Source: a virus
DNA length: 64,000 bases
Direction: 5' to 3' (one strand)
IMG/VR virus record: IMGVR_UViG_3300037130_000236
The position numbers and the translations under genes were made by a program. The notes below the pieces were generated by a model. The model saw nothing but the letters and a program-made list of their open reading frames with translations. It searched no databases and was not told the DNA's origin. Below, one piece after another: positions 35,259 through 64,000 of this stretch; position 1 is the stretch's first letter, and the number at the start of each line of letters is the position of its first letter.

Positions 35259-36461
35259 ATGATCCAGACACCCAGTACCGCATCAACCTACCAGGCCAAC
35301 ATTCTGGCGTCTCTCCAGTTGACCGGCATCACCAACACGTCTCCGGGCGCCAAGGCGCGCGCCTTCACCGATGCCGTGGGAGACCAGATTGGCCAGTCGG
35401 AGGCCAACAGCTTCACATCGATCGCGCAGACATTGCTGCCCTATGCCACTGGATCGAATCTGGATTTCATTGGCCAGATGTTCGGCATTCCCAGGTTGCA
35501 GGCATCCGATGTGAGCAGCTCGGCTCTGGACAACAACTTCGAGTTCTACGTTGCGCGCGGGACTTTCGGAACAATCAACAACGGCCAGGACATCACGATT
35601 CCTGCCGGCACTCAGATCTACACGGTACAGGGCCTCAGAGGGCAGGTAGTTTTGACCTCCAACCCGGTGACCTGCAAGGCTTCCCAGTCGAGCGCCCCGT
35701 TTGCGGTTACGAATCTTCAGTCGGCATCAGCCGGCAATGCCGCGGCCGGCGTGTTCACAAACAGCAACTTCACCAACTATGCCGATTCCGCATACGGCTC
35801 ACTCCTGGTGACCAACAACTATGGATTGATCGGAGGCCGCGATGTTGAAACCGACGACGACTATCGCTATCGCATCAACCTCTGGATCCAATCCAAAGGC
35901 GGCGCCGCCGAAGCGGACCTTCGTCTCGCGGTTCTTGTACTCCCTGGAATCCAGGATCTTGATTTTGTGCGACAGGCTGGCACCTTCCTCTGCTACGTCT
36001 ACGGCATCTCGCCGGTAGTTCCGCCGTCGCTCATCAATCTGGTTCAGGGTACGCTCGACAACCTCACTTCTTATCCGCTCTCGGGTACTGCGACTTCGCC
36101 AGCTTTGGTAGGCATCTCCTTCTCGACGACACTTACATTTATCAGCAGTGCGAACTCGTCCGATCAGCAGAACGCGATCGCCAACGCAATGTCCGCAGCG
36201 CAGAGCTACATCAACAACCTGGCCATGGGCCAGGAGTTTGTCATCAATCAGCTGGCGGATCAGGTTCAGAACGCCGACCCGAACATCCTGGACATCGGGT
36301 CTCCGGACCAGCCCATCAACGAGATCTTCATTTGGCGCAGCCGCGACGACGGTACGCGCTACTCTCGCTACCTGGTGGCGGATTACACCCCGGCAACAGG
36401 CGAACGCATCGTGGTTGAAACCTCCATCTCGAATCCGATCGTTCTGACTTCCGCGTCGTAA
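35259..36461 (+). CDS. Baseplate J-like protein
   Basis: PGAKARAF..ATGSNLDFIGQMFGIPR..GGRDVETDDDYRYRI. Confidence 0.9.
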   Translation: MIQTPSTASTYQANILASLQLTGITNTSPGAKARAFTDAVGDQIGQSEANSFTSIAQTLLPYATGSNLDFIGQMFGIPRLQASDVSSSALDNNFEFYVARGTFGTINNGQDITIPAGTQIYTVQGLRGQVVLTSNPVTCKASQSSAPFAVTNLQSASAGNAAAGVFTNSNFTNYADSAYGSLLVTNNYGLIGGRDVETDDDYRYRINLWIQSKGGAAEADLRLAVLVLPGIQDLDFVRQAGTFLCYVYGISPVVPPSLINLVQGTLDNLTSYPLSGTATSPALVGISFSTTLTFISSANSSDQQNAIANAMSAAQSYINNLAMGQEFVINQLADQVQNADPNILDIGSPDQPINEIFIWRSRDDGTRYSRYLVADYTPATGERIVVETSISNPIVLTSAS

Positions 36462-44102: not shown

Positions 44103-44119
44103 CTCGTTTGGAGAATGCA

Positions 44120-45670
44120 ATGCCGCCAACTGGAATCCAGACTTTCTACTATGGCAAGAACCTGCCGGCCCGTGCCATCGCCATTGCGCAGGTAACGGCC
44201 GAGGACGTGAGTCCCGCCGACCTGATCGATATTGTGAACACACCATACCTGCCCGGTTCGCTGGGCATCTGGAAGGCATCGGAAGGTCTTGCCACTTCTC
44301 CGAACTTCACGGCTCCTGACTACAACCAATCGGTGACGATCACAGGCGATGTTCTGTACATGGTCCAGAACCAGTTCTTTCAGATTACCAATCAGTTCGC
44401 CGCCGATGGAGTGACGCCGCTCTACTTCTACCACAACTTCGGGCAGTCGGTGTCTGGCGCGACGATCCTCAATCTGGACGGATCAGTGGTCACACCGGCC
44501 CCAACTGTATTGTTCAGCGGCAACTGGATGTACCACGATGTTCCTTCCACGCTTCCTTACCAGGTGCGTTATGTGGACAGCGCCGGCCGTGTTCAGATCA
44601 GCCTGCTTCATTGCAACCAGGTGATGCCTCTGAGCACCAATGGTGATACTTCCAAGGGCTACGCTTTCACGGGCGGAATGATCGAGCTTGCCAGCGCGGC
44701 CGTCTCATACTCCATCCGCTTTCTGGTGCAGAACGGCTACCAGGCGCTGCCTCCTTACGAGGCGCCCTCCTATCTGCCATGGTTCCCGCGCGTGCGATTC
44801 TCGCTGCAGCCTCCGGCTTTGGAATATCCCATCCAGAGTTTCCTGCCCACCCGGCCGTATCTGCTGGGCTATTGGATTCCGGGCACGGTCCTCGGGCCCA
44901 ACCTGATCCAGTTCGACAGGCATGGAATCTACAACGACCCCAACCATCTGCCCGACATCGTTGTATTCGACAGCAACCAGAAGATCAAGTACGCGATGGA
45001 TGGCTCTGCAAATGGAGAGCCTGAAACGCACGGCACGCTCTATCCCTGGAAGCGAAATCAGATCTCGGATGTCGATCCTTTCACGGGCAGAGTGGCTGTT
45101 GTGCCCACGGTGCTCACCACCGACACCGTCTATGGGTTCTACTCCTACTTTGAGCCGGACGTCGTTTACACGGCGCTGGATGTGAATCCCGTCACCAACC
45201 CCAGCATCAAGAACACGGTCATCTGCTTTTACTACCGTGCCACAAGCAATCCCTTGCAGGAGATTTACCACCAGGTCTTCAACGATTCAGGCCCGATCGC
45301 GGGGATGACCAACGATCCCAACCCTCCGACCTGGAGCGGACAGACCCCGGCGAGCGGGACTGTCTTCGCCGAGATGGTGGTTGGTGTCTCCTTCGGCATT
45401 GCGACCTTTGAAATGACCGACGTCCGCACTCGCGGCGGCGGGCTCGCCCCGGCCTATCAGACCATTCCCCAGGCGGACAACTTCTGGGATCTTGGCTACC
45501 TCGATGGGCGGCCTTACCCGGTCGGCGGAGCTTTGGTTGTCTATCTGCCAACGCGCATTCTGAACACAATGACCCGTGATGTGGTTGCCGGCATCGTCAA
45601 TTCCGTTCTGCCCATGGGAACCATTGCCGCGATCCGCTACTACGATCCGGAAGGGAACGAAAGTGTCTAG
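44120..45670 (+). CDS. Virion structural (baseplate/fibre-attachment) protein
   Basis: GGAGA RBS then ATG 44120; C-terminal DVRTRGGGL..FWDLGYLDGRPYP motif. Confidence 0.6.
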   Translation: MPPTGIQTFYYGKNLPARAIAIAQVTAEDVSPADLIDIVNTPYLPGSLGIWKASEGLATSPNFTAPDYNQSVTITGDVLYMVQNQFFQITNQFAADGVTPLYFYHNFGQSVSGATILNLDGSVVTPAPTVLFSGNWMYHDVPSTLPYQVRYVDSAGRVQISLLHCNQVMPLSTNGDTSKGYAFTGGMIELASAAVSYSIRFLVQNGYQALPPYEAPSYLPWFPRVRFSLQPPALEYPIQSFLPTRPYLLGYWIPGTVLGPNLIQFDRHGIYNDPNHLPDIVVFDSNQKIKYAMDGSANGEPETHGTLYPWKRNQISDVDPFTGRVAVVPTVLTTDTVYGFYSYFEPDVVYTALDVNPVTNPSIKNTVICFYYRATSNPLQEIYHQVFNDSGPIAGMTNDPNPPTWSGQTPASGTVFAEMVVGVSFGIATFEMTDVRTRGGGLAPAYQTIPQADNFWDLGYLDGRPYPVGGALVVYLPTRILNTMTRDVVAGIVNSVLPMGTIAAIRYYDPEGNESV

Positions 45671-46097
45671 GCCTCGCACATTCACAGTCGAAGAACAGCA
45701 TGAGAAAGACCGAGCCCGCCAACGACGTTGGCGGGCCAATCATCCGACTGAAATGAGGAAGGTCTGGGCTAAGTGGTACAAACTGCATCCAGAAAAAGCC
45801 CTGATCACTCGGATCAAAGGGAAGGCCAAGCGTAACGGAATTGCCTTTGACCTTCTGCCATCTGACATAGAGTTTCCGAAAGTGTGTCCGGTGTTGGGTT
45901 TTCCGATGAACTATGAGGATGTTGGTTCAGACGGCTATCCCCATCTTGATCGGATTGTGCCATCGGTAGGCTACGTCTCTGGAAATGTTTGCATCATCTC
46001 AAGCCGCGCGAACCGCATCAAGCAGGATGGTACGGCTCAGGAACATCTGCTGATCGCCGACTATATCGATGCTTACACCGAAAAGAAGGCAGCATAA
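45663..46097 (+). CDS. HNH-like (His-Me finger) homing endonuclease
   Basis: CPVLG..LDRIVPSVGYVSGNVCIISSRANRIK; start taken at GTG 45663. Confidence 0.8.
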   Translation: MSRPRTFTVEEQHEKDRARQRRWRANHPTEMRKVWAKWYKLHPEKALITRIKGKAKRNGIAFDLLPSDIEFPKVCPVLGFPMNYEDVGSDGYPHLDRIVPSVGYVSGNVCIISSRANRIKQDGTAQEHLLIADYIDAYTEKKAA

Positions 46098-46624
46098 TGG
46101 CAAAACCCTTCTATCTCATCTGGCAGGAAGGAACAACCGTCCTTGAAGGCTACGACGGCGCCAACTGGATCGACGGTCAGTTGACCTTTCCTATCGTGTT
46201 CCCCGGCATCACGACCACGCCGCTGGCGCTTTCGCTGAGTTCTTCTGCCAGCGTCAATCTGACGTTCGAGACACTGATCAACGTCGCCTTCTATCTGACA
46301 GGCAGCGATGCGCCCACGGTGCAAGGCGAGTGGCCTTACATCACCGATGCCTATGGCAACGCGACGGCGTCGGTAACCGGCGGTGTTGAGATCAGCTTTG
46401 ACAACGGCCTGACCTGGAACCGCTTCTCGAACACGGTCGGTCTGGAAAGCACTCCCTCCACATGGCTGCCGCTTCCTCAGGAAGCGGTCGGTTCTGTTGG
46501 CGTGGCCGGCCAGATCGGGGCCTTCGACACAGCTCACATGCTGGTGCGATATGTCATCCCTCCATCGGTCTCTCTGACCAAGGTTCTTGACGTTCAACTG
46601 CAAGTCGATTGCGACGTGGTGTAA
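46097..46624 (+). CDS. Hypothetical virion protein
   Basis: TAATG-coupled, 175 aa, beta-rich. Confidence 0.7.
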   Translation: MAKPFYLIWQEGTTVLEGYDGANWIDGQLTFPIVFPGITTTPLALSLSSSASVNLTFETLINVAFYLTGSDAPTVQGEWPYITDAYGNATASVTGGVEISFDNGLTWNRFSNTVGLESTPSTWLPLPQEAVGSVGVAGQIGAFDTAHMLVRYVIPPSVSLTKVLDVQLQVDCDVV

Positions 46625-46627
46625 AGA

Positions 46628-48820
46628 ATGCAACTCCTCGGGAACTATCAATCCACACTCAGCTCGTCCTACTACCAGCAACTCGTGACGCTGTTGCAGC
46701 AGGCGATCCAGGCAGGCGACTTCGGTGGCGGTCAGGTGTTCGACCAAGCCGCCCTGGTGGCCCTTCAGAAGCAGGCGCAGAACTTCTCCACACTGCCGCA
46801 GCCTTCCGCTGGCCAGGTGGTGACGGATGAGTCGTTCAACAATCCCTTCACCTTGCTGGCTGCCCAGTTCACCGCACTGTTGAATGAGTCGAATGCCTTT
46901 GCGACGCAGATGGCTGCTCTGCTCTCAGTCCTCGGCAAGGACACGGCTCTTGTCGATCAGCTTCTGGCCGAAGCCGATCTTCAGACATGGGCCAGCACAA
47001 TTCCCGCGGTGACCGGCGCCACTCCTATCATGTGGGATTTCGGAGTGGGCTACGGTCCGATCGCTCCCCTGTCCTTGACAGTAATCTGGACCGACCCTGC
47101 CACGAGCGCGACCTACCCCAACAATCCGACGTTGTCTTCCAATCTGGCGACGGTGCTTCTTCCAGGGTTGACTGCTACCGCGTCAGGGTTGACTTGCCCA
47201 CAGAACATTGCCACGGTGCCGGTCAATAACCTGACCTGGACGTACACCACGGGCAATGCGCAGGTCGAGGTTTTGAACCAGGACAGTTGGACAAAGTTGA
47301 CCCTGCTGGAACCTCAGCCTCTCATCAACTTCTCTTCCACGCCGAGTGTTACACCTGCGGCGAGTCCGTTTGTTGTGACTGGAACTTCAAACCTCGGTTC
47401 GCTTCCGGTTTACATCCAGACCTCCTTTGTTGGACGGCAAAGGCACACCACCGCTTCGGCCACCAACGGAACGACGATCTCTCTGTCTCCCTACAGGGTG
47501 GACACCGATGAAGTCTTCGTCTTCGTCGGATATGGCACCACCAAGCAGCAGTTGCTTTCCTCGGCCACCGATTACACGGTGGATCAGTATGGCAACTTCA
47601 CACCCATCACACTCGCCGCGGCCGCCACGACAGTCGACATCTTCTTTGAGGAAGAGTTCCCGGCGTACCAGTGCTCGGTTGATCAGGTCAACTGGTCGCC
47701 TTTGCTCATGCTGGACCCGGCCCGGCCATATCCAGACGGAGCCACCTCGTTCCCGCCGATTGCTTGGAGTATGGACAGCAAAGGGAACCTGGCCCTGCCC
47801 GTCACCGACGAGATCGGCACGCCGACAGGGATGTACATCGAGATCGGATCGGCAGTTCCGACGCAGGCTTACCTCTTGCAGGCGGTGGGCCAGGCTTCCC
47901 CAAACACGGTGGGAGCCACGGCGCTGCTTGAAATCGACTTCGCCCAGCTCAGCTATTTGACGGTTCTCAGGGTGACGCCGTTCACAACTTTCCCCATGAT
48001 TCTGACAAAAGTAGAGATTCAGGGGATAACAACCAATACTAGACAGACAGTGTGGAGTGGTTCGACACCGATCGATCAGCCAACTGCTCTCCACCTTGAC
48101 CAGATAATGGGTATTAACCCGTTGGTTTCAAAGGTGTTCCTGACGTTTTACCAGCCGAACTACTCCCTGAAACAGCAAACGGTTACCCCTCCTGACGCCC
48201 TGCGCTTGAATGTCATGAGCCAGTTGCAGGCAGTTCTTCCGTTCAATGCCCGCAATGTGGTTCCTCCGCCGGCCGTCGTCTACACAGGTGCCCAGTATGA
48301 GTTTGGGGTGGCTGATGTTTCCGGAGAAGCCTGGACGGCCTCGTCAGGTGTGTTTGTTTCAGGTCCAAATAGGTTTGTGGGCATCCCTGAACTGATCCGG
48401 TTTGATGCGGTTTCCACGGATGGTATTTCCAACGCTACCTACACGGGCACCTACGTTCCTCCGAATCTCATCAACAAGATTCCCTCTGCTCAGAACTCGT
48501 CGGGGTCGTTGGCACACATGATGAGTGGCGAGTCCTTGGCTATGTCAGAGGACACCTCGGGCGGTCCAGTCGACTTCTACCTGTGCTTTCAGGCCTTCGA
48601 CAATACAGGCACAGTGATCAAACAGAATCTGACTGGGTATCTGTTGCCTACAGGAGGCAGCGGCCAGTGCTTCTCTTTCACCTACCCGTTTATCAATGGA
48701 TGGAGCATCGGCTCTGGTGCCCTTTCTCAAATCGATCATGTCGATTTCTACATCAAGATTGTCCATCGGAGCTCGTCGGCCGTCGCCCAGCATTACATGT
48801 TGCAAGTGACCGGCCAGTAA
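46628..48820 (+). CDS. Virion structural protein
   Basis: 730-aa ORF in the co-oriented tail operon. Confidence 0.7.
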   Translation: MQLLGNYQSTLSSSYYQQLVTLLQQAIQAGDFGGGQVFDQAALVALQKQAQNFSTLPQPSAGQVVTDESFNNPFTLLAAQFTALLNESNAFATQMAALLSVLGKDTALVDQLLAEADLQTWASTIPAVTGATPIMWDFGVGYGPIAPLSLTVIWTDPATSATYPNNPTLSSNLATVLLPGLTATASGLTCPQNIATVPVNNLTWTYTTGNAQVEVLNQDSWTKLTLLEPQPLINFSSTPSVTPAASPFVVTGTSNLGSLPVYIQTSFVGRQRHTTASATNGTTISLSPYRVDTDEVFVFVGYGTTKQQLLSSATDYTVDQYGNFTPITLAAAATTVDIFFEEEFPAYQCSVDQVNWSPLLMLDPARPYPDGATSFPPIAWSMDSKGNLALPVTDEIGTPTGMYIEIGSAVPTQAYLLQAVGQASPNTVGATALLEIDFAQLSYLTVLRVTPFTTFPMILTKVEIQGITTNTRQTVWSGSTPIDQPTALHLDQIMGINPLVSKVFLTFYQPNYSLKQQTVTPPDALRLNVMSQLQAVLPFNARNVVPPPAVVYTGAQYEFGVADVSGEAWTASSGVFVSGPNRFVGIPELIRFDAVSTDGISNATYTGTYVPPNLINKIPSAQNSSGSLAHMMSGESLAMSEDTSGGPVDFYLCFQAFDNTGTVIKQNLTGYLLPTGGSGQCFSFTYPFINGWSIGSGALSQIDHVDFYIKIVHRSSSAVAQHYMLQVTGQ

Positions 48821-48827
48821 GAAGACC

Positions 48828-50306
48828 ATGTTCAATTCCCTCCTTCTCGACAGCAACGACAGCGTCATCGCGGACCGGCTTTCGCGGCTGCAGGATTCCC
48901 TGCGCGGACTCACTCTCTCAACGCGCGAGGAGTACCAAGCCGCGGTGTATTCCATGGTCAATACGGTTTTGAATCTGGGCGATAACATGCAGACCTTGAC
49001 GCAGATCCGGTCGAAGCCTGCCATCGTTGGTGACCTGTCTCAGAACCTGACCCTGCTGAACCAGGACTCCAATGACATCGCTGCCGAGATCCTGAGGATC
49101 GAGAACAGCGCCGGCGACCTTTACAACCTTGCGGCCGCATCGCAGAACGCACTGCGCCAGCTGATCCGCCAGTCGATCTACATCTCGAACCAGCAGCAGT
49201 TCCTGGCGCCGTTCATTGACGATTCCGTTCTCCAGCCGGGTTACACGGCAACGCTTGATTACAACGCTGGTCTGGCAACACTTCCGTTGGGCACACAGAC
49301 CCTGCTTTCGCCGACTTTCTCGATAGGCATCGGCAGCTCAGGGAGCGCCGTCAATGCCATCAGCAACCTGTCTTCAACAACGGTGGGGACTTCCTTCCAA
49401 TGGTCTGGATCTTCCTTGGAGATGCTCCTGTCATTCCCCAGTCCGACGATCGTCAACAGGTTGCAGATCGCACTGGACACCTACACCGGCCTCGAGATCA
49501 CCAACTTGACCAGTTCTCCCGATGGTCTGGTATTCAACGACGTGCTGGCAGACCTCGATGTGCCCATGATCATTCTGGATGCCACCTCGGGGAAATGCTC
49601 TGGCGATGTGATCATCGACTTTCCGCCCCGTCTGGTTCAACAGATGAGGGTGGTGATTGCCTGCCGCGCGGGCCAGACGAGCTTTGCTCTGCGCTCGTTC
49701 AATGCCTACAAACGGTCCTACCAATCGTCGGGTATGGTGACGAGCCAGCCGATCTATCTCTCCAGCACCTCGGCCGAATTCGCCGCCGAGCAGGTCACCA
49801 CCAGCCCATACACTTCCATCACCCACCAGATCTCCACGGATGGTGTGAACTTCGTAAGCATCACACCTGGGGTCGTGGCTGTGTCACAACCCTTCTGGTA
49901 TCGGGCGATCCTGAATCGCAGCGATAGCGCCTTCAGCAAACAGAGTTCGCCGCTGTTGCCGCTGCCATCGAGTGCGGCTGCAAATACGCCGTACACGATC
50001 AACAGCCAGACCACCACGACTTTGAACAACGGGATGGTCGAGCAGACAATCGTCTTGAGCAATGTCACGGGCCCTGTGGTCTTTCAGGACGCACCGCTCA
50101 CCGGCAGTCTGAGCGCGCAGGTGGGATCGCTCTTCTTGAAGAACACTTCCGACTTCACGCTGACAGGCAACACTCTGACCTTCACAGCGACACAGCCCTT
50201 GGTGACCATCTCCTATCAGACGTCCGCACTGGGCGCATCGGCTCTTGCTTCGTTGCAAGGCTACTACTCCCCACTTCTCTACGAAGCCAGTTTCCAGGCA
50301 GTCTAA
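48828..50306 (+). CDS. Virion structural protein
   Basis: 492 aa, helical N-terminus plus beta-rich C-terminus. Confidence 0.7.
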   Translation: MFNSLLLDSNDSVIADRLSRLQDSLRGLTLSTREEYQAAVYSMVNTVLNLGDNMQTLTQIRSKPAIVGDLSQNLTLLNQDSNDIAAEILRIENSAGDLYNLAAASQNALRQLIRQSIYISNQQQFLAPFIDDSVLQPGYTATLDYNAGLATLPLGTQTLLSPTFSIGIGSSGSAVNAISNLSSTTVGTSFQWSGSSLEMLLSFPSPTIVNRLQIALDTYTGLEITNLTSSPDGLVFNDVLADLDVPMIILDATSGKCSGDVIIDFPPRLVQQMRVVIACRAGQTSFALRSFNAYKRSYQSSGMVTSQPIYLSSTSAEFAAEQVTTSPYTSITHQISTDGVNFVSITPGVVAVSQPFWYRAILNRSDSAFSKQSSPLLPLPSSAAANTPYTINSQTTTTLNNGMVEQTIVLSNVTGPVVFQDAPLTGSLSAQVGSLFLKNTSDFTLTGNTLTFTATQPLVTISYQTSALGASALASLQGYYSPLLYEASFQAV

Positions 50307-50308
50307 TC

Positions 50309-51652
50309 ATGAGCACATCCCTTCCCACATTCCAATTCGGTGAAGTTGCTTCGGCATCGCAGCTGATGGCTGCGTTCAATGTTCTGTGGAATCAGGGAGA
50401 GAACATCCTGAATGCCCTGACCAACTATCGCAATCTTTCGTTGGTGGATTTCCAGCAGCAGGTCGAGGCCCTGAACAGCCGGTTGCAACGGGCCAATCGC
50501 ATCAGTCCGCCCTACACGACCGTGAACTTTGTCACCACGGACTTTCTGGACATCGATCAGACTCAGACATCGGCCACGGTTCGTGCCGATGCGCAGGCCG
50601 TAACTCTCAAAGAGAGATCCACGACGACCAATGCCGTCATCCAGAACCAGACCTTTGCTACATCGGATGGAACGGCAGAAGCCATCTCGACTGACAATTC
50701 GCTCTATCGCGTCAACACGACGGACGGTTCAATTCCAACCGGCACATTCACGGTGCAGTTGGCTCAGTCCTTGAACATGACGGTGCTGACCTTTGACCTG
50801 GCTGCCATGCCGCCGACCCCGGTTTTCAAGGTCTCAGCATCACCTGACGGAACCACATTCACGCAAGCCGTACAGGTGAGCATGAACGGGTATCGCTTGA
50901 CGGCTTGGTTCGCGCCGATGGAGATGCTTTACATCACCTTGGCGATTACGCCGGCGGCCCCCGACACTCTGGGAGGTTCGTCATACACCTTCGGCCTTAC
51001 GGACTTCGCCGGGACTGAGACAGAATTCGAGATGGTGTCCGAGATGGTGACGAAACCCATCTTCTTCACTCCCGCCAGCGCCAGCCTGAAACTGGTCGCA
51101 CCTGCGACTCCAGGCATTCTTTACTTCCTCAGCTTCAATGGCGGCCTCTGGCAGGAGTATGCGGCTGGCAGTGTGGTTCCTGTTCCCAACACAGGCACAG
51201 TTTCGGCTACTGGTGTCACCGTGTCGGCCATGTCGGGCGCGCCGGAATATAGCGGTTACAGCATCAATATGCCAAGCGGCACTCGTGAGTTTGAAACGAT
51301 CTTCTTGAACTCGATCCAAGTCACTGACCTGACAACTGGGCTTCCGCTTAGAGTGGCACCGGGGCTGAACCCTGCATTTGCCAACCCCCTTGGGGTAAAC
51401 GGTGGAAGGTATGGACCTATTCCTGGGATGACTCATGACTATGTGGCGCAGGGTGGGTATGGGGGCGGTCTGATGCTGATCCCCGGCAACCCAACCAACA
51501 CCTTCTCAGGGAAGACCTACAGTGTCTCCTACTCAGGGGTCACCGCAAACTGGATTCCCATCACTTGGTCCGTGCAACTCAAAGTTCAACTGTCCACTTC
51601 AGATCGAACCGTGACGCCCACTTTCACCGGCGCGTCGCTGCAGGAGATGTAA
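50309..51652 (+). CDS. Virion structural protein
   Basis: 447 aa, same architecture as the two upstream genes. Confidence 0.7.
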   Translation: MSTSLPTFQFGEVASASQLMAAFNVLWNQGENILNALTNYRNLSLVDFQQQVEALNSRLQRANRISPPYTTVNFVTTDFLDIDQTQTSATVRADAQAVTLKERSTTTNAVIQNQTFATSDGTAEAISTDNSLYRVNTTDGSIPTGTFTVQLAQSLNMTVLTFDLAAMPPTPVFKVSASPDGTTFTQAVQVSMNGYRLTAWFAPMEMLYITLAITPAAPDTLGGSSYTFGLTDFAGTETEFEMVSEMVTKPIFFTPASASLKLVAPATPGILYFLSFNGGLWQEYAAGSVVPVPNTGTVSATGVTVSAMSGAPEYSGYSINMPSGTREFETIFLNSIQVTDLTTGLPLRVAPGLNPAFANPLGVNGGRYGPIPGMTHDYVAQGGYGGGLMLIPGNPTNTFSGKTYSVSYSGVTANWIPITWSVQLKVQLSTSDRTVTPTFTGASLQEM

Positions 51653-52134
51653 TGAAAGGCAAGCAACCCGTCATCGATGCATTGAACCAGGCCGCGCGCG
51701 GCGAGCTTCAGGCGATCTGCCAGTATCGCACCCACCGGGAACTGCAGAAGGCAGCAGGCTATAGCCGGCTGTCCAAGCGACTTTCGCGTGAGCACCTGGA
51801 AGACGAGGAGAGGCATCTTCGTCTGTTCATGGAGCGGATCATCTTCCTCGAAGGTGTTCCCGACATCAGCCACATGCCCAGCCTGAAGATTGGCGACAAC
51901 ATTCCGGCCCAGTTCGAGAACGACTTGTCGGCCGAGTATGAGGCGATCGCTCAATACAGAGAGGCATCCATTCTCTGCGGAACGCAGGGTGACTTCACCT
52001 CGCAGAACCTGTTCGAGGACATCCTGGCCGAGGAAGAAGATCACGCCTCGGACTTCGAGCAGCAACTTGCGGTCATCAATCAGACCGGGCTGGAGGCTTA
52101 CCTCGCCCGGAATTCACACGTTGAGGCGAAATAA
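51652..52134 (+). CDS. bfr: Bacterioferritin (heme-ligand Met replaced by Glu)
   Basis: MKGKQPVIDALN..GELQAICQY..DEERH..ERIIFLEG..DLSAE..EEEDH; ferroxidase ligands E18, E52, H55, E95, E128, H131. Confidence 0.9.
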   Translation: MKGKQPVIDALNQAARGELQAICQYRTHRELQKAAGYSRLSKRLSREHLEDEERHLRLFMERIIFLEGVPDISHMPSLKIGDNIPAQFENDLSAEYEAIAQYREASILCGTQGDFTSQNLFEDILAEEEDHASDFEQQLAVINQTGLEAYLARNSHVEAK

Positions 52135-52874
52135 TGGCCACTCTTCCGCTGACCTCTCTGGCGCTGGTCTCCACGCAGAGAACCGTTCCACTGAACGGTT
52201 CCCCAACGTCGCAGGACTACAACGATGACCAGAACGACGGGCTGATCGATCTCACATCGATCGTCTCGTTCATCAATGGGACACTCATTCCACTGCTGCA
52301 GGTGCTGCCTAGTCTGGCCGCGACCGCGGGCCTCGAAGGCCGCGCAATCAACACGGACTCAACCAACCTGACGGCGCTGTGCTTCAACGCTCTGACTTCG
52401 ACACCTCTGACGGTCGCCCAGTCTCTCAACTACTTGCAGAACCTGCAGACGAACTTGCAGGGCCAGATGACCAGCCTGAGCACACAGGTGGCGGTTCTCT
52501 CCTCGCAGTTGTCAGCCACCAACCAGAACGACATTTCACTGGCGTTGCAGAACTTCCAATCGGTGCTGAACACAACGACTGCGACTCTCAATGCCCTTCA
52601 GACTGCAGTCAACAACAACGCGGCCACAACGGCGCAGGTGGTGACGCCCTCGATTGCAGCATCGAGCCATACGAATGTCGTTGTGGGCTGGGCCAGTTCC
52701 TTCACCGGCAACAACTACACCGTCACCCTTTCGGTGGAAGATTCGACCGGCTTCCTGCAGATCGACTCCTGGTTCTATAACGCTGGCGGGGCAGGCGTGA
52801 CCGTCAAGGTAAGCAACACCGACTCCGCCGCTGCCCACACCGGCACCATTCATGCCATCGCCATTCCTGCCTAA
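52134..52874 (+). CDS. Coiled-coil fibre/whisker-like virion protein
   Basis: Central heptads and a beta-rich C-terminal domain; TAATG-coupled to bfr. Confidence 0.6.
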   Translation: MATLPLTSLALVSTQRTVPLNGSPTSQDYNDDQNDGLIDLTSIVSFINGTLIPLLQVLPSLAATAGLEGRAINTDSTNLTALCFNALTSTPLTVAQSLNYLQNLQTNLQGQMTSLSTQVAVLSSQLSATNQNDISLALQNFQSVLNTTTATLNALQTAVNNNAATTAQVVTPSIAASSHTNVVVGWASSFTGNNYTVTLSVEDSTGFLQIDSWFYNAGGAGVTVKVSNTDSAAAHTGTIHAIAIPA

Positions 52875-52881
52875 CTGTTAG
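52871..52881. promoter_or_regulatory. Operator-like palindrome CTAACTGTTAG
   Basis: Third exact CTAACNGTTAG, overlapping a stop codon just before the large fibre gene. Confidence 0.5.
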
Positions 52882-52916
52882 TAGGTATGCACAACTGCTG
52901 ACTTCCGAGGGACTCC

Positions 52917-55900
52917 GTGCGCCAGCTTAAATCCATCCTTGTATTCCTGTTCGTTCTCCTGCCTGTTCTGGCTTACGGCCAGGTCACGCAGCTTTCCGGG
53001 CCTGTAAAGAACAATGCCAATGCGGCCGTGCCGAATGCCACGGTGACGTTCGTCCTGACGAACTGCGGGTCATCTGCACCGACTAATCCAGTTGATGTGG
53101 CGATCACCACCTCCGGGGGTTATATCAATGCGGAGATCCCCAGGAACCACAGCTTCAAATGCATCGGAACAGACTATTACCAGGTCACACTGGCGGACGC
53201 TTCCGGCAATCTGATCTGGACGCGGCCTTACATGTTCACGACTCAGGTGGGCAACCTGAATAGTCCTCTGACGACGCTTCCTCCGGCGGTCCCTGGATTG
53301 AGTTCAGGAAATGGCGCGATTCTGGATGCAAAGCAGATCGGCGGTGTCTACCAGGTCGATCAGTTCTCTGGCTCGGACATCGGAGTCAAGATTGCCAATT
53401 GCCTGAGTGGGTTGAATCAGACCTACGGCGGCACCTGCGATGCACGGAACTTTGTGGGAACGCTGTCGATGGCGTCGAACCTGACGATCTCGACGACCAA
53501 CGCCGTGATCTATCTGCCTTGCGCCACGATCTCGACGGCCAGTCAGATCATAGTGCCGGCGGCAGTGCGCAACGTGGTTCTGCATGGCTGTTCTTTGCGA
53601 GGTATTAGCACCGCGAGTGGAAGCCAGGGAGGCACCGTTCTTTTGTACTCCGGGCCGAGCAATGCTGTTCAGGTCGGAGACACCACGTATGCCCAGAACA
53701 CAATGGGTTTCAAGATGGACAACGTGGCCATCAACACCACAGGATCGACCAGCGCGGCGACCGGCTTCTATGCCTATCGCGCGCAGGAGATCCGCCTTGA
53801 GAGCAGCTACTTCCTCGGCAACCAGAACCAGACTGGCATGACCATAGACGGCACCGGCAATTATGCCGGTGGCACCTTCGAGGACCTGGAGTTCACTGGC
53901 TTTGGACAGGCGATCAATGGCACGGGCCATCTGATCTCGAATGCAGCCACAACGGACTGGATGAATGCCAGCACCTTCATCAGAGTTCACATCGATTGCC
54001 CGGAGAGTAATGGCAATCCGATCACAGGGATCTACGGCATCAACCTGCAAGCAGGCGATGGGAATACCTTCATCGGCGGCGATGTCGAGGGTTGCGGGAC
54101 CATGTTCCATCTCGGCTCGCACGCACAGAACAACACGATCCTGGGCCTGCGCAACGAGGTCTCCGCCATTCAGTATCAGGCGGACTCGGGTTCGCAGTTC
54201 AATTCCGTGCTCACAGGCGGCACCTTCTTTACCGGCGATCTGATCGACAACGGCAGCCGCAACAACTTCGAGGATGCATTCCACCGCGACTCCAATGGCA
54301 TGAAGGGCGACTGGTACGCCAGCCAGCAAGATGTGACCATCGAAGATCACCAACGGCTCGGCATCGGTGTGGGTAATGAGCGCGGCCGATTGACTGAAGT
54401 CCAAACCGATTATGGATACCGTTGGATCTACGGTCTCGGTGATGGCACGTCGGGCATGCAGATGTATTACGTTCAGGACCTGCTCAACAGTGTGTACAGG
54501 CTCTCGATTGGACAATATCTCAGCGCGAACGGGAACTCCGTTGTGGGTGTGTCCCTGAACAACGGCGGGACCTACACGTCTTCGACACCGCCGACGATCA
54601 CATTCTCGGGTGGAGGCGGGACAGGCGCCGCCGGCACCGCTGTCATGTATGGAAGCGGCACCAGTTGGTACGTGCTTTCAGTTACCATGACCAACAACGG
54701 GTCTGGGTACACCAGCGCGCCTACGGTCACATTTACTGGGCCCAACCAGACCAAGGCGCCGAATGCCGTGGCCGAGATCACCCTGTCTGGAAGTACCAAC
54801 AACCAGACCGTGCTCAATGCTGCTGGCACCGGCGCGATTGTGCTCAATGGTTCTAACAACTCCGGTACTGGCGGCGTCATCTTCGGCTCTGGCGGCCCAA
54901 GCGAAACCACTGTTGGCTTGATCGATGGCCATGGCAACGCCACCTTCCAAGGCACTCTGACTGTGGCAGGCGAGACTGTCTTTCAGACCTCTGCTGAGGT
55001 GCGAAATGGTGTTGATGCTGAGTCGGACTTCTCGTTGTGGTCTGGCCTGACGACTGCTCAGAAGGAATCTCTCACCTACAAGGACTGGAATGGCAGCAGC
55101 CAGTGGTACATGGAGAAGGACCAGTACAACAACTGGGTGTTGAACTCCGCCGTTGACAACCTTGATCACTTCAAGGCCTACCAGAATGGAGATGACTATA
55201 TCGACGCGGCCAGCGGCGCAACGGTGCGTGTCAATTACGAGAGCGGTTCTGGTTCCGGTTTTGCTGTCTACGGCGGCAACAGCTCGACTTTGTATTTCAG
55301 CCTCACGGCAGCGAATGCTGTCAAGATCCCTGGGCTTGCCGCGAGCAGCGGGCACAACTGCTTGCAGATCGACAACTCGGGTTGGGTCACCAACACCGGC
55401 TCAGCTTGCGGATCTGGATCGACGGGCGGAACTGTCACCAGCGTTGGGCTGACAGAGACGGACAGTTCGAGCTATTTCACCATCACGAGCAGCCCTGTCA
55501 CTTCTTCCGGGAACCTCGGCATCAAGCTGACAAGCGTGACCGGCACTGGCAACCAACTGGTGACTTCGGCCAGTCCGGTCATCAATGATCTGGCCATGAC
55601 AGGCTACGCCGAGATCGGCGGCGCGCCGTATGCCTCGTCTCCGGAGTTTCTCATTGCAGATACGAGTGCTGTTGTGCCGATGTTCATCATGCCTACTTAC
55701 TTTGGCATCGTGGCTCCGAACTCTGGAGCTTACGATCTCATGGAGTTCTGGCAGAACGGCGCGATTGTCTTTGAGATGGGGATGGCCGGTGACATCACGA
55801 GAGGCAGCTGGTCGGGATCGCCGATCCAGAACGTGTACCTGGCCAATTCAACAATCGTCATCAACGGAACGACCTGCACACTGGGTTCTCCTTGCACGGT

Positions 55901-57977
55901 GAGCACCAGCACTTTCTCTGGCACTTCACTCCCCAGCACAGTGACCGGATCTTACCTCACCAGCGTCGGGACAATCACTACAGGCGTGTGGCAAGGAACT
56001 CCGATTGCGAACGCGTATTTGGCCAATTCCTCGACCACGGTCAACGGCCAGCCATGTGCTCTCGGCGGCGCCTGCACGATCACAGCTTCTCTTTCTGGCA
56101 CGAGCCTTCCCAGTTCGGTCGTGACCTCTTATCTGACGGCAGTGGGGACGATCACCACCGGCGTCTGGCAGGGCACGCCTGTTGCGAATGCCTATCTGGC
56201 CAACTCATCGGTGACGGTGGCGGGCCAGAGCTGCGTGCTTGGATCATCCTGCGCAATCGCCGCGGCGAACCTTAGCAACGGCACGAGCGGCTCCGGAGCA
56301 GTCGCGTTGGTAAACGCACCGACCTTCACGGGCAACGTCACGACACACGCGAACAATGCTGCCAGCCAGGACTACCTGATCATCCAGCCAGGCACAGGCG
56401 GCACCGACTACATCGGTGCTCTGGAGTTCGCCAACTACGCGGGCACCAGCCAATGGGAGATCCGCAAGGATGCGAGCAACACCTTCCGGATCCGGGACAC
56501 CGTCAACTCTGTGGATAGGTTCATTCAATATGCCGGCAGCCAGACACAAATCAACTCCGGTGGAACTTCTTCGGTGGCCATCAACGGCGCCAGCTCTTCT
56601 GGCTCCGGGGGCTTTGTGGTCTATGAAGGTGGGTTGAACTACACGACCCTTGCCTTCGCGGTGACCAGCTCGGGCAATGCCAATGTGGCCGGAGTCATCA
56701 CGGCGGCGGGTGTCAAGGATACAGCGATTCTCTCCGCATACCTGCTCGGGACCGACAGCAGCGGAGACTTGCTTGCGGAAACCATGTCGGGAGACGCAAC
56801 CCTCGGATCGGGAGGCGCCCTGACGCTGGCATCGGTGAACAGCGGCAGTGCAGGGAGCTTTGGCTCTTCGACTGCGATTCCCACCTTCACCGTCAATGCC
56901 AAGGGGCTCATCACCGCAGCCGGAACAACCGCGGTGGTTGCGCCAGCCGGTACGCTGACGGGGACGATCCTGGTCTCGACTGTGGTGACTTCCTCGCTGA
57001 CCTCTGTCGGCACGATCGGTACGGGCATTTGGCAAGGTACCGCCGTCGGAGTGGCCTACGGCGGCGTGAACAACACCGTGGCGCCGGCGGCCGGCCAGAT
57101 TCTCATTGCACAATCTGCGACGGCCTACGCCCCTGAGACGGTATCGGGTGACTGTACCCTGGCGATTACCGGCGCGTTTACTTGCACCAAGAGCAACGGT
57201 ACAGCATTTGGCACGGGTGCCTTTGCAATCGTCGCCAACTACGCTACGTTGGCTTCGCCGACATTCACCGGAACACCCTCCGCACCAACGCAGACTACCG
57301 GCGACAATACAACCGCCCTGGCAACGGATGTCTTTGTGAATGCATCCATCACAGCCGGCGGCTTCCTGACCACTTCTTCGGCTTCCAGCACGTACGCGCC
57401 GAAGGCCTCGCCAACTTTTAGTGGTACGGTTACGGTGCCAACAGAGACCATTGTCTCCAGCGGCAACATGCATTTGGACGCGGCAACCGGTGCTTACTAC
57501 GTTTGCATCAACTGCGACAACAATACCGGCACCAGCGGCTTCGTTGTCCAGAACGGCACAGGCAGCAGTCCCACAACTGAGTTCCAGGTCACCGGATCTG
57601 GCAACACGACGGCCACAGGCTACCTCTCTTCGAAGGGATGGTTCGGCAACTACACGGCTAGTTATACCGCCGGAGCGGCGGCAGGCACCAGCCCTACCAT
57701 TGCCTGCGCCACTACACATACCTGCACCAACATCCAGGGCACCTACAGCATCAAGACGGGCACCAGTCCCACGACCGGTACTCTCGTGACGATCAACCTC
57801 AATCACACGCAGAACAATATCCTCGACTGCTCGAGCGATCTCTGGCTCCCTGGCACTGGCCACATCCTTACCTACGAGCTCACCAACTCCACCACCAGCA
57901 CCATTGTGGTGACCTTGGATGCGGCCCTGACCGCGTCGACCACCTATTACTTCACCTACGTCTGCGGCAGCTACTAA
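52917..57977 (+). CDS. Large tail-fibre/tailspike-like adhesin with beta-helix region and Sec-type signal peptide
   Basis: 1686 aa; MRQLK-ILVFLFVLLPVL-AYG/Q N-terminus; pectin-lyase-like N/G/T-rich repeats; GTPTAPT/DN.T.LAT..FV fibre motif. Confidence 0.75.
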   Translation: MRQLKSILVFLFVLLPVLAYGQVTQLSGPVKNNANAAVPNATVTFVLTNCGSSAPTNPVDVAITTSGGYINAEIPRNHSFKCIGTDYYQVTLADASGNLIWTRPYMFTTQVGNLNSPLTTLPPAVPGLSSGNGAILDAKQIGGVYQVDQFSGSDIGVKIANCLSGLNQTYGGTCDARNFVGTLSMASNLTISTTNAVIYLPCATISTASQIIVPAAVRNVVLHGCSLRGISTASGSQGGTVLLYSGPSNAVQVGDTTYAQNTMGFKMDNVAINTTGSTSAATGFYAYRAQEIRLESSYFLGNQNQTGMTIDGTGNYAGGTFEDLEFTGFGQAINGTGHLISNAATTDWMNASTFIRVHIDCPESNGNPITGIYGINLQAGDGNTFIGGDVEGCGTMFHLGSHAQNNTILGLRNEVSAIQYQADSGSQFNSVLTGGTFFTGDLIDNGSRNNFEDAFHRDSNGMKGDWYASQQDVTIEDHQRLGIGVGNERGRLTEVQTDYGYRWIYGLGDGTSGMQMYYVQDLLNSVYRLSIGQYLSANGNSVVGVSLNNGGTYTSSTPPTITFSGGGGTGAAGTAVMYGSGTSWYVLSVTMTNNGSGYTSAPTVTFTGPNQTKAPNAVAEITLSGSTNNQTVLNAAGTGAIVLNGSNNSGTGGVIFGSGGPSETTVGLIDGHGNATFQGTLTVAGETVFQTSAEVRNGVDAESDFSLWSGLTTAQKESLTYKDWNGSSQWYMEKDQYNNWVLNSAVDNLDHFKAYQNGDDYIDAASGATVRVNYESGSGSGFAVYGGNSSTLYFSLTAANAVKIPGLAASSGHNCLQIDNSGWVTNTGSACGSGSTGGTVTSVGLTETDSSSYFTITSSPVTSSGNLGIKLTSVTGTGNQLVTSASPVINDLAMTGYAEIGGAPYASSPEFLIADTSAVVPMFIMPTYFGIVAPNSGAYDLMEFWQNGAIVFEMGMAGDITRGSWSGSPIQNVYLANSTIVINGTTCTLGSPCTVSTSTFSGTSLPSTVTGSYLTSVGTITTGVWQGTPIANAYLANSSTTVNGQPCALGGACTITASLSGTSLPSSVVTSYLTAVGTITTGVWQGTPVANAYLANSSVTVAGQSCVLGSSCAIAAANLSNGTSGSGAVALVNAPTFTGNVTTHANNAASQDYLIIQPGTGGTDYIGALEFANYAGTSQWEIRKDASNTFRIRDTVNSVDRFIQYAGSQTQINSGGTSSVAINGASSSGSGGFVVYEGGLNYTTLAFAVTSSGNANVAGVITAAGVKDTAILSAYLLGTDSSGDLLAETMSGDATLGSGGALTLASVNSGSAGSFGSSTAIPTFTVNAKGLITAAGTTAVVAPAGTLTGTILVSTVVTSSLTSVGTIGTGIWQGTAVGVAYGGVNNTVAPAAGQILIAQSATAYAPETVSGDCTLAITGAFTCTKSNGTAFGTGAFAIVANYATLASPTFTGTPSAPTQTTGDNTTALATDVFVNASITAGGFLTTSSASSTYAPKASPTFSGTVTVPTETIVSSGNMHLDAATGAYYVCINCDNNTGTSGFVVQNGTGSSPTTEFQVTGSGNTTATGYLSSKGWFGNYTASYTAGAAAGTSPTIACATTHTCTNIQGTYSIKTGTSPTTGTLVTINLNHTQNNILDCSSDLWLPGTGHILTYELTNSTTSTIVVTLDAALTASTTYYFTYVCGSY
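55800..56267 (+). repeat. 59-aa (177-nt) tandem repeat in the fibre gene
   Basis: Units at 55914 and 56091 (SGTSLPS.V..SYLT.VGTITTGVWQGTP.ANAYLANSS.TV.GQ.C.LG..C), partial unit upstream. Confidence 0.85.
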
Positions 57978-57985
57978 ATGGCTGG

Positions 57986-57997
57986 CTATACTAGACA
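57986..57997 (+). promoter_or_regulatory. Putative late-promoter motif CTATACTAGACA
   Basis: Same core; intergenic, before the GGAGG RBS of 58013. Confidence 0.55.
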
Positions 57998-58012
57998 GCT
58001 TTTGGAGGCAGC

Positions 58013-58414
58013 GTGCCTGTGGCAACGAAGACGCGGAAGCTGGTTTCCTATTCGGTCCGGCGGAAGCACAACCGGAAGCGGCCGGCCTCGAAGCTTGAGA
58101 AGGCAGTGTATGCCATGCTCAAGGCCGAGAAGATTCTCTTCACAAAGGAGAAGCAGATTGGCCGTTGTCATGTGGACGTCTTCATTGAGCCGTGGGCAGT
58201 CGTGGAGATCCAGGGATGCTACTGGCACAAGCACTCCTGCCACCGGCCCAAGGCAGGCTGGACGCACGAGGATCTGGCCGTTCAGGCCAGGGACACCGAT
58301 CGCTTTGCCTACCTCAAAGCTCAAGGCTACAAGGTTGTCGTAATCTGGGAGTGCGAGATCGAGCGAGATCAGGAATGGATTCGATCGCTGCTGCGCAGCC
58401 TCAAGCAGGTTTAG
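58013..58414 (+). CDS. Vsr/DUF559-family (PD-(D/E)XK) endonuclease
   Basis: SKLE..VDVF..VVEIQGCYWH.H..RD..LKAQGYKVVVIWECEI. Confidence 0.85.
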   Translation: MPVATKTRKLVSYSVRRKHNRKRPASKLEKAVYAMLKAEKILFTKEKQIGRCHVDVFIEPWAVVEIQGCYWHKHSCHRPKAGWTHEDLAVQARDTDRFAYLKAQGYKVVVIWECEIERDQEWIRSLLRSLKQV

Positions 58415-58677
58415 TGGCCGAGAAGATAGATTCCCAAAGCACCCACACCGATGATTCCTCCGACAACGAGCAGGACAAGACAGATGCTTATCAGGGCGGG
58501 CTGGATCGAGTTCTTCCAGGCATAGCGAACGGGATGATGTGCTTTCTCGTATGCCGCTTCTGCCAGGATTGCTTCTCGCGTGTCGAGGCTGACCCCTTCA
58601 GACCCAAACTCATCTCGTCGGTTGTATAAGGTCGTGGCAGTCCTTGTGGCGACCTGAATGATTGACAAGGGGTTCAT
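58411..58677 (-). CDS. Small protein with C-terminal TM helix
   Basis: 88 aa, strong C-terminal hydrophobic segment, fits the gap between + genes. Confidence 0.6.
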   Translation of the reverse strand: MNPLSIIQVATRTATTLYNRRDEFGSEGVSLDTREAILAEAAYEKAHHPVRYAWKNSIQPALISICLVLLVVGGIIGVGALGIYLLGH

Positions 58678-59457: not shown

Positions 59458-59459
59458 TC

Positions 59460-62582: not shown

Positions 62583-62801
62583 TTGGTTGTTCGAACACTG
62601 CATCGTTACGAATGTTTGCGGCTGGGGAATCGTGAGCGCGAACTGAACGGGATGGAGACCATGGCGAGACAACGACAGAATGCTCGGCGGTTGGGCGGAT
62701 ATTGGCGTTTCTGCCTATCCGCACTTGACCTCATGGATGCGTTCACAGCACAATCATTTCAGCCAGCCGTTTCGCGTGAAGTGATCAGGAGAGCATCTTG
62801 A
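62583..62801 (+). pseudogene. Possible degenerate second xis-like ORF
   Basis: RRLGGYWRFCLSALD resembles the xis wing (GKLWRFRASDL) but the HTH helix is not recognisable; stop overlaps the integrase start. Confidence 0.35.
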
Positions 62802-64000
62802 AATTCACGCGCAATCGGTATCAACAAGGAAGTCTACGAAAAGTGCGACGCAAGTCTGGAGCTGAGGTTTGGGAGTACAGGTTTCGCAACCATGCGGAGC
62901 CGGGAAGTCCTATGCGCCAGATAACGCTCAGTGCATTGGAGTATCCAACCGAAACAAAAGCTCTTGTCCGTCTGCAAGAGGACGTGCTTCGAATCAACGA
63001 TTCGAAAGCCTTCAAGGCGCACAACAGGCCAACGCTGGGATTGGTGATTGACCGATTCTCAACCGAGGAGCGCCTGGAAGGAATTCTGCGACAGGCACCG
63101 GGGGAGGCCACCATCACGGACGGCTTTTCCTGGAGCACCGCCGCCGGTTACCGCAGCTACCTCAAGAAGCACATCCGGCCCAAATGGGGTAGCACTCTAC
63201 TCACAGACGCCAGACCACTCGAAATCTCTGAATGGTTGAAGTCTTTGCCTCTGTCGCCGAAGACACGCGGCCATGTCGGAGCCCTCCTGCATCTCCTGTT
63301 CGAGCGGGCAATGCTGTGGGGCTTGATGGACGTTCAGCGAAACCCTATGGAGTTGGTGAAGCTGAAGGGAACCAGCAAGCGGCTTAAAAAGCCGCAAATT
63401 CTCACCCCTGAGAAGTTTCAGGAGTTGGTTTCCATGCTGCATGAGCCATACAGGACGATGGTCATTGTCGCGATGTGCACCGGGATGCGGGTGTCCGAGG
63501 TTTTGGCCCTTCGCTGGGAGCATATCGACTTCGAGGCCGGAGCGATGTTGGTTCAACAGGGTGTCGTCAACGGCCGGATCGGAAGAGTGAAAACTGAAGC
63601 GTCCAACGATTACATCCCACTTGATCCCGCATTTGCTCAAATCCTGCGCGATTGGAGGGGAGCCAGAACGACCGGGCTTGTCTTCCCGTCGCACGTCACC
63701 GGCGGCTGCTACTACGCGGGCGTCATTCAGCAACAGATTCTGAAGCCTGCCGGTGAAAAGATTGGCCATCCGGGAATTGGTTGGCACGTCTTCAGGCACA
63801 CGTATCGTTCCTTTCTGGACGAAACGGGCGCTCCCATCGGTGTGCAGCAGAAACTCATGCGGCACAGCAACGTGGCCACGACCATGAACGTCTACGGCAA
63901 CGCCAGCCTGAGAGCCAAGCAGACGGCCAACTCAAAGGTTGTGCAGATGGTGATGCCGCAAGAACCACCACTGGCTGTGCGGCAGTCAGTGGCGGTTTGA
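62798..64000 (+). CDS. int: Tyrosine recombinase / phage integrase
   Basis: Arm-binding N-terminus; catalytic R (TGMR), K (VKT), HxxR (HVFRH), H (MRH), Y (MNVY); AGGAGA RBS, TTG start. Confidence 0.95.
   Translation: MKFTRNRYQQGSLRKVRRKSGAEVWEYRFRNHAEPGSPMRQITLSALEYPTETKALVRLQEDVLRINDSKAFKAHNRPTLGLVIDRFSTEERLEGILRQAPGEATITDGFSWSTAAGYRSYLKKHIRPKWGSTLLTDARPLEISEWLKSLPLSPKTRGHVGALLHLLFERAMLWGLMDVQRNPMELVKLKGTSKRLKKPQILTPEKFQELVSMLHEPYRTMVIVAMCTGMRVSEVLALRWEHIDFEAGAMLVQQGVVNGRIGRVKTEASNDYIPLDPAFAQILRDWRGARTTGLVFPSHVTGGCYYAGVIQQQILKPAGEKIGHPGIGWHVFRHTYRSFLDETGAPIGVQQKLMRHSNVATTMNVYGNASLRAKQTANSKVVQMVMPQEPPLAVRQSVAV

Follow-up and report, generated by a model that had tools for sequence, protein, structure and literature searches.

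Bacterioferritin (Bfr) chains that do without haem have been described in bacteria, in passages of PMC12120770 and PMC12867745, and ferritin-like proteins are known from phages as well. The bacterial Bfr1 chains, which form part of the hetero-Bfr of Magnetospirillum and Shewanella, are marked according to a passage of PMC12867745 by a one-residue insertion in the ferroxidase helix (T127) and by changed positions 33, 41 and 60. Most discussion of how phages handle iron concerns the tail fibres of marine phages (the 'Ferrojan horse' idea) and host genes that are induced upon infection. As examples of the latter, passages of two reports state that host bfrB transcripts rise upon infection with phiKZ (PMC8244752) and that Bfr is enriched in virocells (PMC12282109). 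Phage-borne genes of the Bfr type, on the other hand, are hardly documented: our literature search on phage-borne bacterioferritin yielded one relevant passage, in a preprint on a temperate Nitrosospira soil phage that has a bacterioferritin among its accessory or metabolic genes (bioRxiv 10.64898/2026.05.02.722434). Here, we analyzed a bfr-like gene within a 64,000-nucleotide stretch of viral DNA, the IMG/VR virus record IMGVR_UViG_3300037130_000236 (the window). The gene (51652..52134, + strand) encodes a 160-amino acid bacterioferritin homologue without haem ligand, P0001. It represents a divergent phage-borne Bfr lineage that is new in having its own insertion in helix B, a fixed junction within a late operon and a clean presence/absence pattern in peat phages. 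On balance, we favour the reading that bfr is an optional accessory gene of a peat phage and encodes a late, co-translated and haem-free Bfr-type protein that oxidises or sequesters iron.

The identification of P0001 is based on matches in Pfam, NCBIfam and the PDB and on an AlphaFold2 model. The Pfam family Ferritin (PF00210) matched with an E value of 3.4e-25 and 89.1 bits (cut-off 24.5), and nearly all of the 54 distinct PDB sequences matched by P0001 are bacterioferritins, the best solved relative being Bfr of Blastochloris viridis (4am2; E value 2.9e-32). The AlphaFold2 model, obtained with a 72-row alignment, reached a predicted local distance difference test score (pLDDT) of 95.2 and displays the four-helix bundle of a Bfr (helices 5-34, 38-65, 84-111 and 115-145), followed by the short C-terminal fifth helix (147-153). 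In a Foldseek search with this model, the top matches were all Bfr, with template-modelling (TM) scores of 0.94-0.97 and root-mean-square deviations of about 0.8-1.1 Å. P0001 has neither an N-terminal leader nor an extra domain, and its ends match those of cellular Bfrs except for about seven C-terminal residues. The prediction of a two-copy homodimer (alignment A4) scored 0.25 against a mark of 0.42 and counts neither way.

In Escherichia coli numbering, we take the di-iron ligands of Bfr to be Glu18, Glu51, His54, Glu94, Glu127 and His130. The ferroxidase ligands of P0001, E18, E52, H55, E95, E128 and H131, are present in all seven full-length members of the phage clade to which the protein belongs. 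The column of the haem ligand Met52, in contrast, is occupied by Glu (E53) in 7/7 clade members, whereas it holds Met in 16/16 aligned cellular rows and in 8/8 bfr loci of the host genus (L072-L079). In alignments with P0001, the partner sequence has to be opened by a gap of one residue immediately ahead of this column. At the haem site, the solved and cellular relatives in these alignments show E-EMAH, E-EMHH, GEMKH or DEMKH, and the clade shows DEE[RK]H. An earlier note, made from the letters of the window, had reported the complete set of six ferroxidase ligands as well as a Glu in the place of Met52 together with a one-residue insertion. The alignments confirm both observations and place the insertion in helix B. 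The inserted residue is His48, which is invariant in the clade, absent from 64/64 cellular rows and situated one helical turn before a ferroxidase ligand. Compared with the same 64 rows, further clade-specific changes are Met to E53, Trp to A35, Ala to L56, Leu to F59, Ile to M60 and Leu to F135. Several of these fall on what is presumably the face of helix B that lines the haem pocket in Bfr, and the pocket may have been refilled rather than just vacated.

P0001 shares its length class, its fold and the six ferroxidase ligands with classical haem-binding Bfr (TIGR00754; 4am2, 3fvb/9gzu, 3is7, 1bcf), at 34-41% identity and TM scores of 0.94-0.97 to the structures. It differs from these in carrying Glu for Met52 and the His48 insertion, in scoring below the cut-off of TIGR00754 and in being phage-borne. 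The closest functional analogue would be the haem-free Bfr1 chain (9iig_A, 9h1u), in which Met52 is likewise replaced and the ferroxidase centre intact; by this analogy, P0001 may be specialised for oxidation and storage of iron without haem-mediated release. Unlike Bfr1, P0001 shows no gap relative to cellular Bfrs around positions 120-135 and has its own insertion at residue 48 instead, and its K33, S41 and E61 look unspecialised, with the transfer of numbering being approximate. Within the 64 kb of the window, no second ferritin-like frame that could be a partner bfr was found. Kinship with Bfr1 by way of a shared insertion was considered and rejected, as helix B of 9iig_A, the Bfr1 chain from Shewanella, contains no inserted residue.

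With the phage proteins of the ferritin superfamily (Dps-like, Ftn-like and gp346 of Bacillus phage G; BFVD), P0001 has its viral provenance and a ferritin-like fold in common. Those proteins, however, are only 10-17% identical to P0001 and belong to the Dps or Ftn type, and fusion to other domains is frequent among them. PHROGs contains no family for P0001. In INPHARED, 10 records gave a match to P0001, all below 38% identity; at least six of these are large records in which the match is annotated as an ordinary bacterioferritin, and the best match (Pseudomonas phage Y5, 37.8%) lies in a record that is flagged UNVERIFIED and unannotated. INPHARED thus offers no convincing record of a phage-borne gene of the Bfr type. 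The Nitrosospira phage resembles the window phage in carrying bfr as an accessory gene of a temperate soil phage; its bfr, likened here from the description alone, is found among many host-like metabolic genes. Iron-loaded tail fibres of the T4 gp37 type carry His-x-His (HxH) motifs, as a passage of PMC11705849 states. Unlike this system, the tail-fibre-like open reading frames (ORFs) of the window phage are devoid of HxH.

A search of 5.8 billion proteins returned as the closest group P0002-P0005, P0007 and P0009, all with 160 amino acids and 93-56% identical to P0001; beyond this group, identity falls to at most 42%. All of its members possess the helix-B insertion, the DEE[RK]H motif and the conserved C-terminus, and P0002 stands for a 90% cluster of 155 sequences that are spread over many contigs. 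When a profile of the group was run against 1.84 billion representatives, its own cluster scored 312 bits, followed by two fragments and then by the best outsider with 159.6 bits. In the 147 other representatives listed, the haem-site column held Met in 110 and another residue in 35, and was missing from two fragments. Cells thus commonly have Bfr-like proteins without the haem ligand; the haem-less state is not unusual in itself, nor is this type of protein rare. Bfr synteny is known for relatives that are at least 91% identical; P0003, P0004, P0005, P0007, P0009 and P0071, a more distant relative, were found neither in IMG/VR nor in the 26 genome-contig loci or the metagenome loci listed (at least 33). 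Of these proteins, P0007 comes from a contig of 89.6 kb.

The phylogeny of Bfr was inspected on a tree of 128 rows (quick search, rooted on two Desulfobacterota rows), on which the seven rows of the phage clade are monophyletic with a support of 92 in the Shimodaira-Hasegawa-like approximate likelihood-ratio test (SH-aLRT). The clade stands apart on this tree, yet named Bfr1 sequences had been left out of it. It falls outside the Terriglobia Bfr group and also outside the Bfrs from the genus of G001, a genome (89% complete) that harbours a prophage closely related to the window. Its sister is P0071 (SH-aLRT 96), a metagenomic Bfr-like protein of 160 amino acids on a 2357-bp contig that is 38-40% identical to the clade, has the same helix-B insertion and ...ARxS... 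C-terminus, and carries Arg at the haem-ligand column. A further protein, P0010 (170 amino acids, 660-bp contig), matches the clade for about 107 residues and is wholly different thereafter, owing to either a frameshift or a misassembly. Pattern scans for cellular relatives identified 11 Acidobacteriota/Terriglobia loci with 40-43% identity to P0001, all with Met at the haem site; the eight bfr loci of the host genus (g1), also all with Met, are 37.7-40.4% identical. Because the cellular Bfrs found are at most 43% identical and keep Met, bfr is not a recent copy of a host gene. A recent host origin, which the earlier note had named, as a near-identical copy not expressed in lytic growth, among the findings that would speak against its view, was consequently rejected, in agreement with the tree position; the comparison with host bfr proposed there separates the phage clade from the Bfrs of both the host genus and Terriglobia.

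Bfr is under purifying selection and has long been resident in phage genomes. The ratio of non-synonymous to synonymous substitution rates (dN/dS) is 0.10-0.12 against L028-L031, at a synonymous divergence (dS) of about 0.45. Against L001 it is 0.022, and for the flanking genes it lies at 0.02-0.09. The base composition of bfr, with a GC content of 0.576 overall and 0.739 at third codon positions (GC3), resembles that of its neighbours.

The reading frame begins with ATG at 51652, comprises 160 codons and ends with TAA at 52132-52134. At its left junction (51650..51654, + strand), the TAA of the upstream gene for a 447-amino acid protein (51650-51652) overlaps the bfr ATG by one base; at its right junction (52132..52136, + strand), the bfr TAA overlaps in the same manner the ATG (52134) of the gene for a 246-amino acid protein. 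Both junctions therefore read TAATG, just as the earlier note had stated, and the left one also occurs in L001 and L028-L031. One-base TAATG overlaps are found at six junctions of the tail operon and are therefore an ordinary feature of its style, nothing peculiar to bfr. By inspection, a Shine-Dalgarno-like AGGAG (51642..51646, + strand) lies 5 nt before the bfr ATG; the same motif precedes the gene of the 246-amino acid protein in relatives without bfr. A GAGG within the final codons of bfr (..HVEAK; 52123..52126, + strand) lies, again by inspection, 7 nt before the next ATG, and a nucleotide constraint on this stretch may contribute to the conservation of the C-terminus. From 44000 to 60394, a scan of the + strand, which used the sigma-70 consensus as its one promoter pattern, gave neither promoter-like nor terminator-like sites; by this measure, bfr does not have the promoter and terminator of its own by which a moron is expressed from a prophage. 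What the earlier note had taken as co-expression with structural genes thus stands with respect to the arrangement, as bfr belongs to a co-oriented, overlapping tail/baseplate block and lacks a promoter-like or terminator-like site of its own. Late expression is what we infer from this arrangement.

Close relatives of the window differ by the presence of bfr. Between 44000 and 63900, the DNA of the window is 93-99% identical to G001 and to the IMG/VR record G002 on both sides of bfr, and the matches to both end at 51654 and restart at 52124. The junctions without bfr read ...GAGATGTAATGGCCAC..., in which the two TAATG are fused into one and exactly 482 bp are absent. Four close relatives have this bfr-less form, namely the G001 prophage, G002, L081 and L083. 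Correspondingly, a scan of IMG/VR with the 246-amino acid protein gave four contigs at 99-100% identity, three of which lack bfr (L080, which is G002, L081 and L083) and one of which carries it (L082, the contig of L001). Six other contigs (L001 and L028-L032, with L030 and L032 being short or partial ones) possess bfr at the same site and with the same junctions, and their flanks are 82-95% identical to the window. The synteny check suggested in the earlier note has therefore returned one fixed site and clean absences. In trees of the flanking genes, rows with and without bfr are intermixed; the three most distant rows (L028, L029 and L031) all have bfr, and the two flank trees conflict. Such a distribution is consistent with a gene of long residence that was repeatedly lost, or exchanged by homologous recombination between alleles. 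Both forms coexist in one peat DNA run (X2), in which contigs agree with the window throughout bfr and loose ends show the bfr-less junction as well. Bfr is hence optional and dispensable to the phage, and as a gene of host type that varies among close phages and is under selection it behaves as an accessory or auxiliary gene does.

The relevance to acidic, iron-rich habitats that the earlier note had suggested agrees with the labels of the runs that hold the stretch, which are peat, permafrost or wetland. Such labels are carried by every one of the 14 DNA rows that contain half or more of the words of the stretch, and one of these may be the source sample. Bfr is unevenly distributed among potential hosts: in the genus of G001, a bfr scores above the cut-off in 12 of 25 genomes, in a neighbouring family (f2, including the unpublished G036) in none of 16, and no bfr was found in G001 itself. 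Contigs of three metatranscriptome libraries from three studies (X15, X16 and X18) extend over the tail genes that flank bfr, with 90-99% identity. Transcription of related phages in situ is therefore possible, as is carry-over of DNA into the libraries. The same contigs leave 51765-52066 almost uncovered, which proves nothing as they are contigs only.

Taken together, the intact di-iron site, the fold, the purifying selection, the dispensability and a fixed operon position that lacks its own signals argue for a functional, non-essential protein made with the late genes. We propose that bfr would be translated with the late baseplate and tail-fibre genes through the overlapping stop and start codons, and that P0001 would oxidise Fe(II) at its intact ferroxidase centre and, if it forms cages, lock iron away late in infection. 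Without haem to pass on electrons for the release of iron, P0001 would be a one-way sink, and haem-dependent release via a Bfd-type ferredoxin would be absent; a crude motif scan found no C.C...C..C frame for such a partner in the window. In Fe(II)-rich acidic peat, the trapping of iron could lower Fenton damage to replicating and packaged DNA, and the benefit would be expected chiefly in hosts without a bfr of their own. The labels of the runs, the patchy occurrence of host bfr and the rise of Bfr in infected cells of other systems make such a benefit plausible. As four of the closest relatives lack bfr, any benefit to the phage must be conditional. With respect to the iron-sequestering cage favoured in the earlier note, the Bfr type with its full ferroxidase set, the loss of Met52 and the position in a late tail block hold, and an accessory role in iron handling is the best available account of them, with the cage itself and its protective effect remaining conditional. 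Bfr would then probably be no part of the virus particle.

Several observations weigh against this account. P0001 reaches 116.1 bits with the NCBIfam bfr equivalog TIGR00754, which is under the cut-off of 125.55, and the insertion of His48 in helix B could alter the chemistry of the site. It is uncertain whether a cage would assemble without haem: in several bacteria, Bfr1 chains that lack haem form no 24-mers alone (in a passage of PMC12867745), and apo Bfr of one species is monomeric in solution, while others assemble without haem (in a passage of PMC13532695). Among the closest relatives, with flanks of 93-99% identity, four lack bfr and one has it besides the window. In the RNA libraries, the only junction seen is the bfr-less one, as a contig of X16 links 51649 to 52132 and skips 482 bases, and loose ends in X15 show the same junction. 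Finally, the host phylum would be Acidobacteriota, an assignment that follows the nearest cellular homologues.

A different function of the same protein would be to co-assemble with the haem-binding Bfr of the host into mixed cages, as Bfr1 does with Bfr2 or with an unspecialised Bfr. In this way, the phage would re-tune the iron store of the host towards more iron oxidation and less haem-dependent release. Haem-free ferroxidase chains generally co-assemble with haem-binding partners and often form no 24-mers alone, according to a passage of PMC12867745, and a suitable haem-type bfr is at hand in 12 of the 25 genomes of the host genus. Yet the clade is without the hallmarks of Bfr1, as there is no insertion at 127 and K33, S41 and E61 resemble an unspecialised Bfr; P0001 is just 37.7-40.4% identical to the host-genus Bfrs with which it would have to pair, and no bfr was found in G001, the host of a related phage. 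We regard mixed cages as rather unlikely. Lysogenic conversion, in which bfr would be expressed from the prophage as an iron store for the host, could be considered since the phage is temperate (it has an integrase, and the G001 prophage lies at tRNA-Lys) and host bfr is patchy. The gene is, however, buried deep in a late operon and overlaps each of its neighbours by one base, and no promoter-like or terminator-like site was found around it on the + strand, so that we hold this role to be very unlikely.

The location of bfr among structural genes, to which it is translationally coupled, could also indicate a virion-associated or assembly protein that is packaged or donates iron to metal-bearing parts of the tail, as the earlier note had offered as its second option. 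Iron-bearing tail fibres and spikes are known (passages of PMC11705849 and work cited by PMC8244752), and ferritin-like domains occur fused to viral proteins named prohead protease (BFVD). A virion structural gene would, however, be conserved in all close relatives, and bfr is absent from four whose flanks are 93-99% identical; an essential role in the virion is unlikely because of these four. P0001 has no leader or extra domain, and its gene resides in the tail rather than the head module. A link to tail-fibre iron was examined and rejected: the tail-fibre-like ORFs are free of the T4-type HxH motif, which among the 19 ORFs of the tail module (33303-58343) is found in a gene of the endonuclease VII type alone, and most of the 19 are His-poor. 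A virion or assembly role is accordingly unlikely. That bfr is a functionless passenger on its way to loss might be suspected from its repeated loss or exchange among close relatives and from the existence of the possibly frameshifted variant P0010. Against this stand a dN/dS of about 0.1 over a dS of about 0.45, the retention of 160 amino acids and all six ligands in members down to 56% identity, and the 155 members of the P0002 cluster on many contigs, and we consider a passenger very improbable. A more far-reaching reading combines several steps: a phage-specific Bfr lineage that lost haem and gained a new His and a conserved C-terminal extension would serve not as a plain iron store but as a late one-way iron trap or as a particle-borne ferritin, and would belong to a wider, undescribed habit of large soil phages to keep ferritins in structural blocks. 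There is a small, though not negligible, chance that this combination holds as a whole.

The clean polymorphism in the presence of bfr would supply naturally isogenic pairs with which the use of iron handling to a virus can be tested. Variants with and without bfr in one sample would make the fitness effect of an iron-sequestering protein directly testable. The clade also offers natural haem-free Bfrs with an unusual helix-B insertion, on which the assembly of cages without haem can be studied.

Bfr is part of a co-oriented block (33303-58343) that also includes several very large ORFs without a known family. The block is anchored as a baseplate/tail-fibre module by a Baseplate J-like wedge gene (35259..36461, + strand; PF04865, 1.7e-18; phrog_6, 1.6e-26), and a protein in the same block has a Gp53-like tail-fibre C-terminus that scores slightly under the Pfam cut-off. 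The upstream gene of the 447-amino acid protein (50309..51652, + strand) is of phage type: it has no Pfam or PHROG match, its atlas neighbours are viral clusters, discoidin leads in the atlas stay under 0.9, and its dN/dS is 0.03-0.09. The downstream gene of the 246-amino acid protein (52134..52874, + strand) likewise has no Pfam or PHROG match and viral atlas neighbours, with lectin and Gp53-like_C leads under 0.9. AlphaFold2 gave this protein a pLDDT of 52.7, too low for a fold search, with long helices followed by a C-terminal beta domain; with low confidence, the model would be fibre-like. It is reasonable to regard the block as a tail-fibre module. PADLOC gave no defence-system match for bfr or its neighbours.

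A tyrosine integrase (62798..64000, + strand; PF00589, 5.5e-19) runs off the end of the window. In G001, the 93-98% identical element without bfr is an integrated prophage (L084, G001:C3:225000-238500, 12229-13453), whose integrase adjoins tRNA-Lys(ctt), with genes for sigma-54, UDP-glucose dehydrogenase and an epimerase beyond. The lineage is temperate, because its integrase lies beside tRNA-Lys and cellular genes in G001, and the phage most likely belongs to a temperate, contractile-tailed lineage of peat. The host flank in G001 has a GC content of 0.639, compared with 0.576 for the window.

Besides bfr, the operon has one more gene-sized insertion at a TAATG junction, the HNH/endonuclease VII-type gene mentioned above (144 amino acids; 45663-46097, + strand; phrog_3322, 8.9e-29). 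Its GTG start overlaps the stop of a gene for a 520-amino acid protein, and a TAATG junction follows at its end; 8/8 relatives examined lack the gene and have a plain TAATG junction instead. Its GC content of 0.513 and GC3 of 0.545 are well under those of its neighbours. Because of this low GC and GC3 and the absence from all eight relatives, it looks like a recently arrived homing endonuclease.

Past the gene of the 246-amino acid protein, an ORF of 1686 codons (52917-57977, + strand) starts with a hydrophobic, signal-peptide-like N-terminus, MRQLKSILVFLFVLLPVLAYGQ. Unusually for a tail protein, the encoded product contains 24 Cys; its sole family match is a weak stretch to the PHROG 'head closure Hc2'. 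The structural block is broken by two genes on the opposite strand (30740-33191, - strand), one of which encodes a 559-amino acid protein with eight WG beta repeats (3.6e-70) and the second a 260-amino acid protein that matches DnaJ weakly. In BFVD, a ferritin-like domain is contained in several proteins named 'prohead protease' (333-763 amino acids) from uncultured Caudovirales. In the window, an ORF of 1848 codons (22602-28148) encodes an SLT lytic transglycosylase domain.

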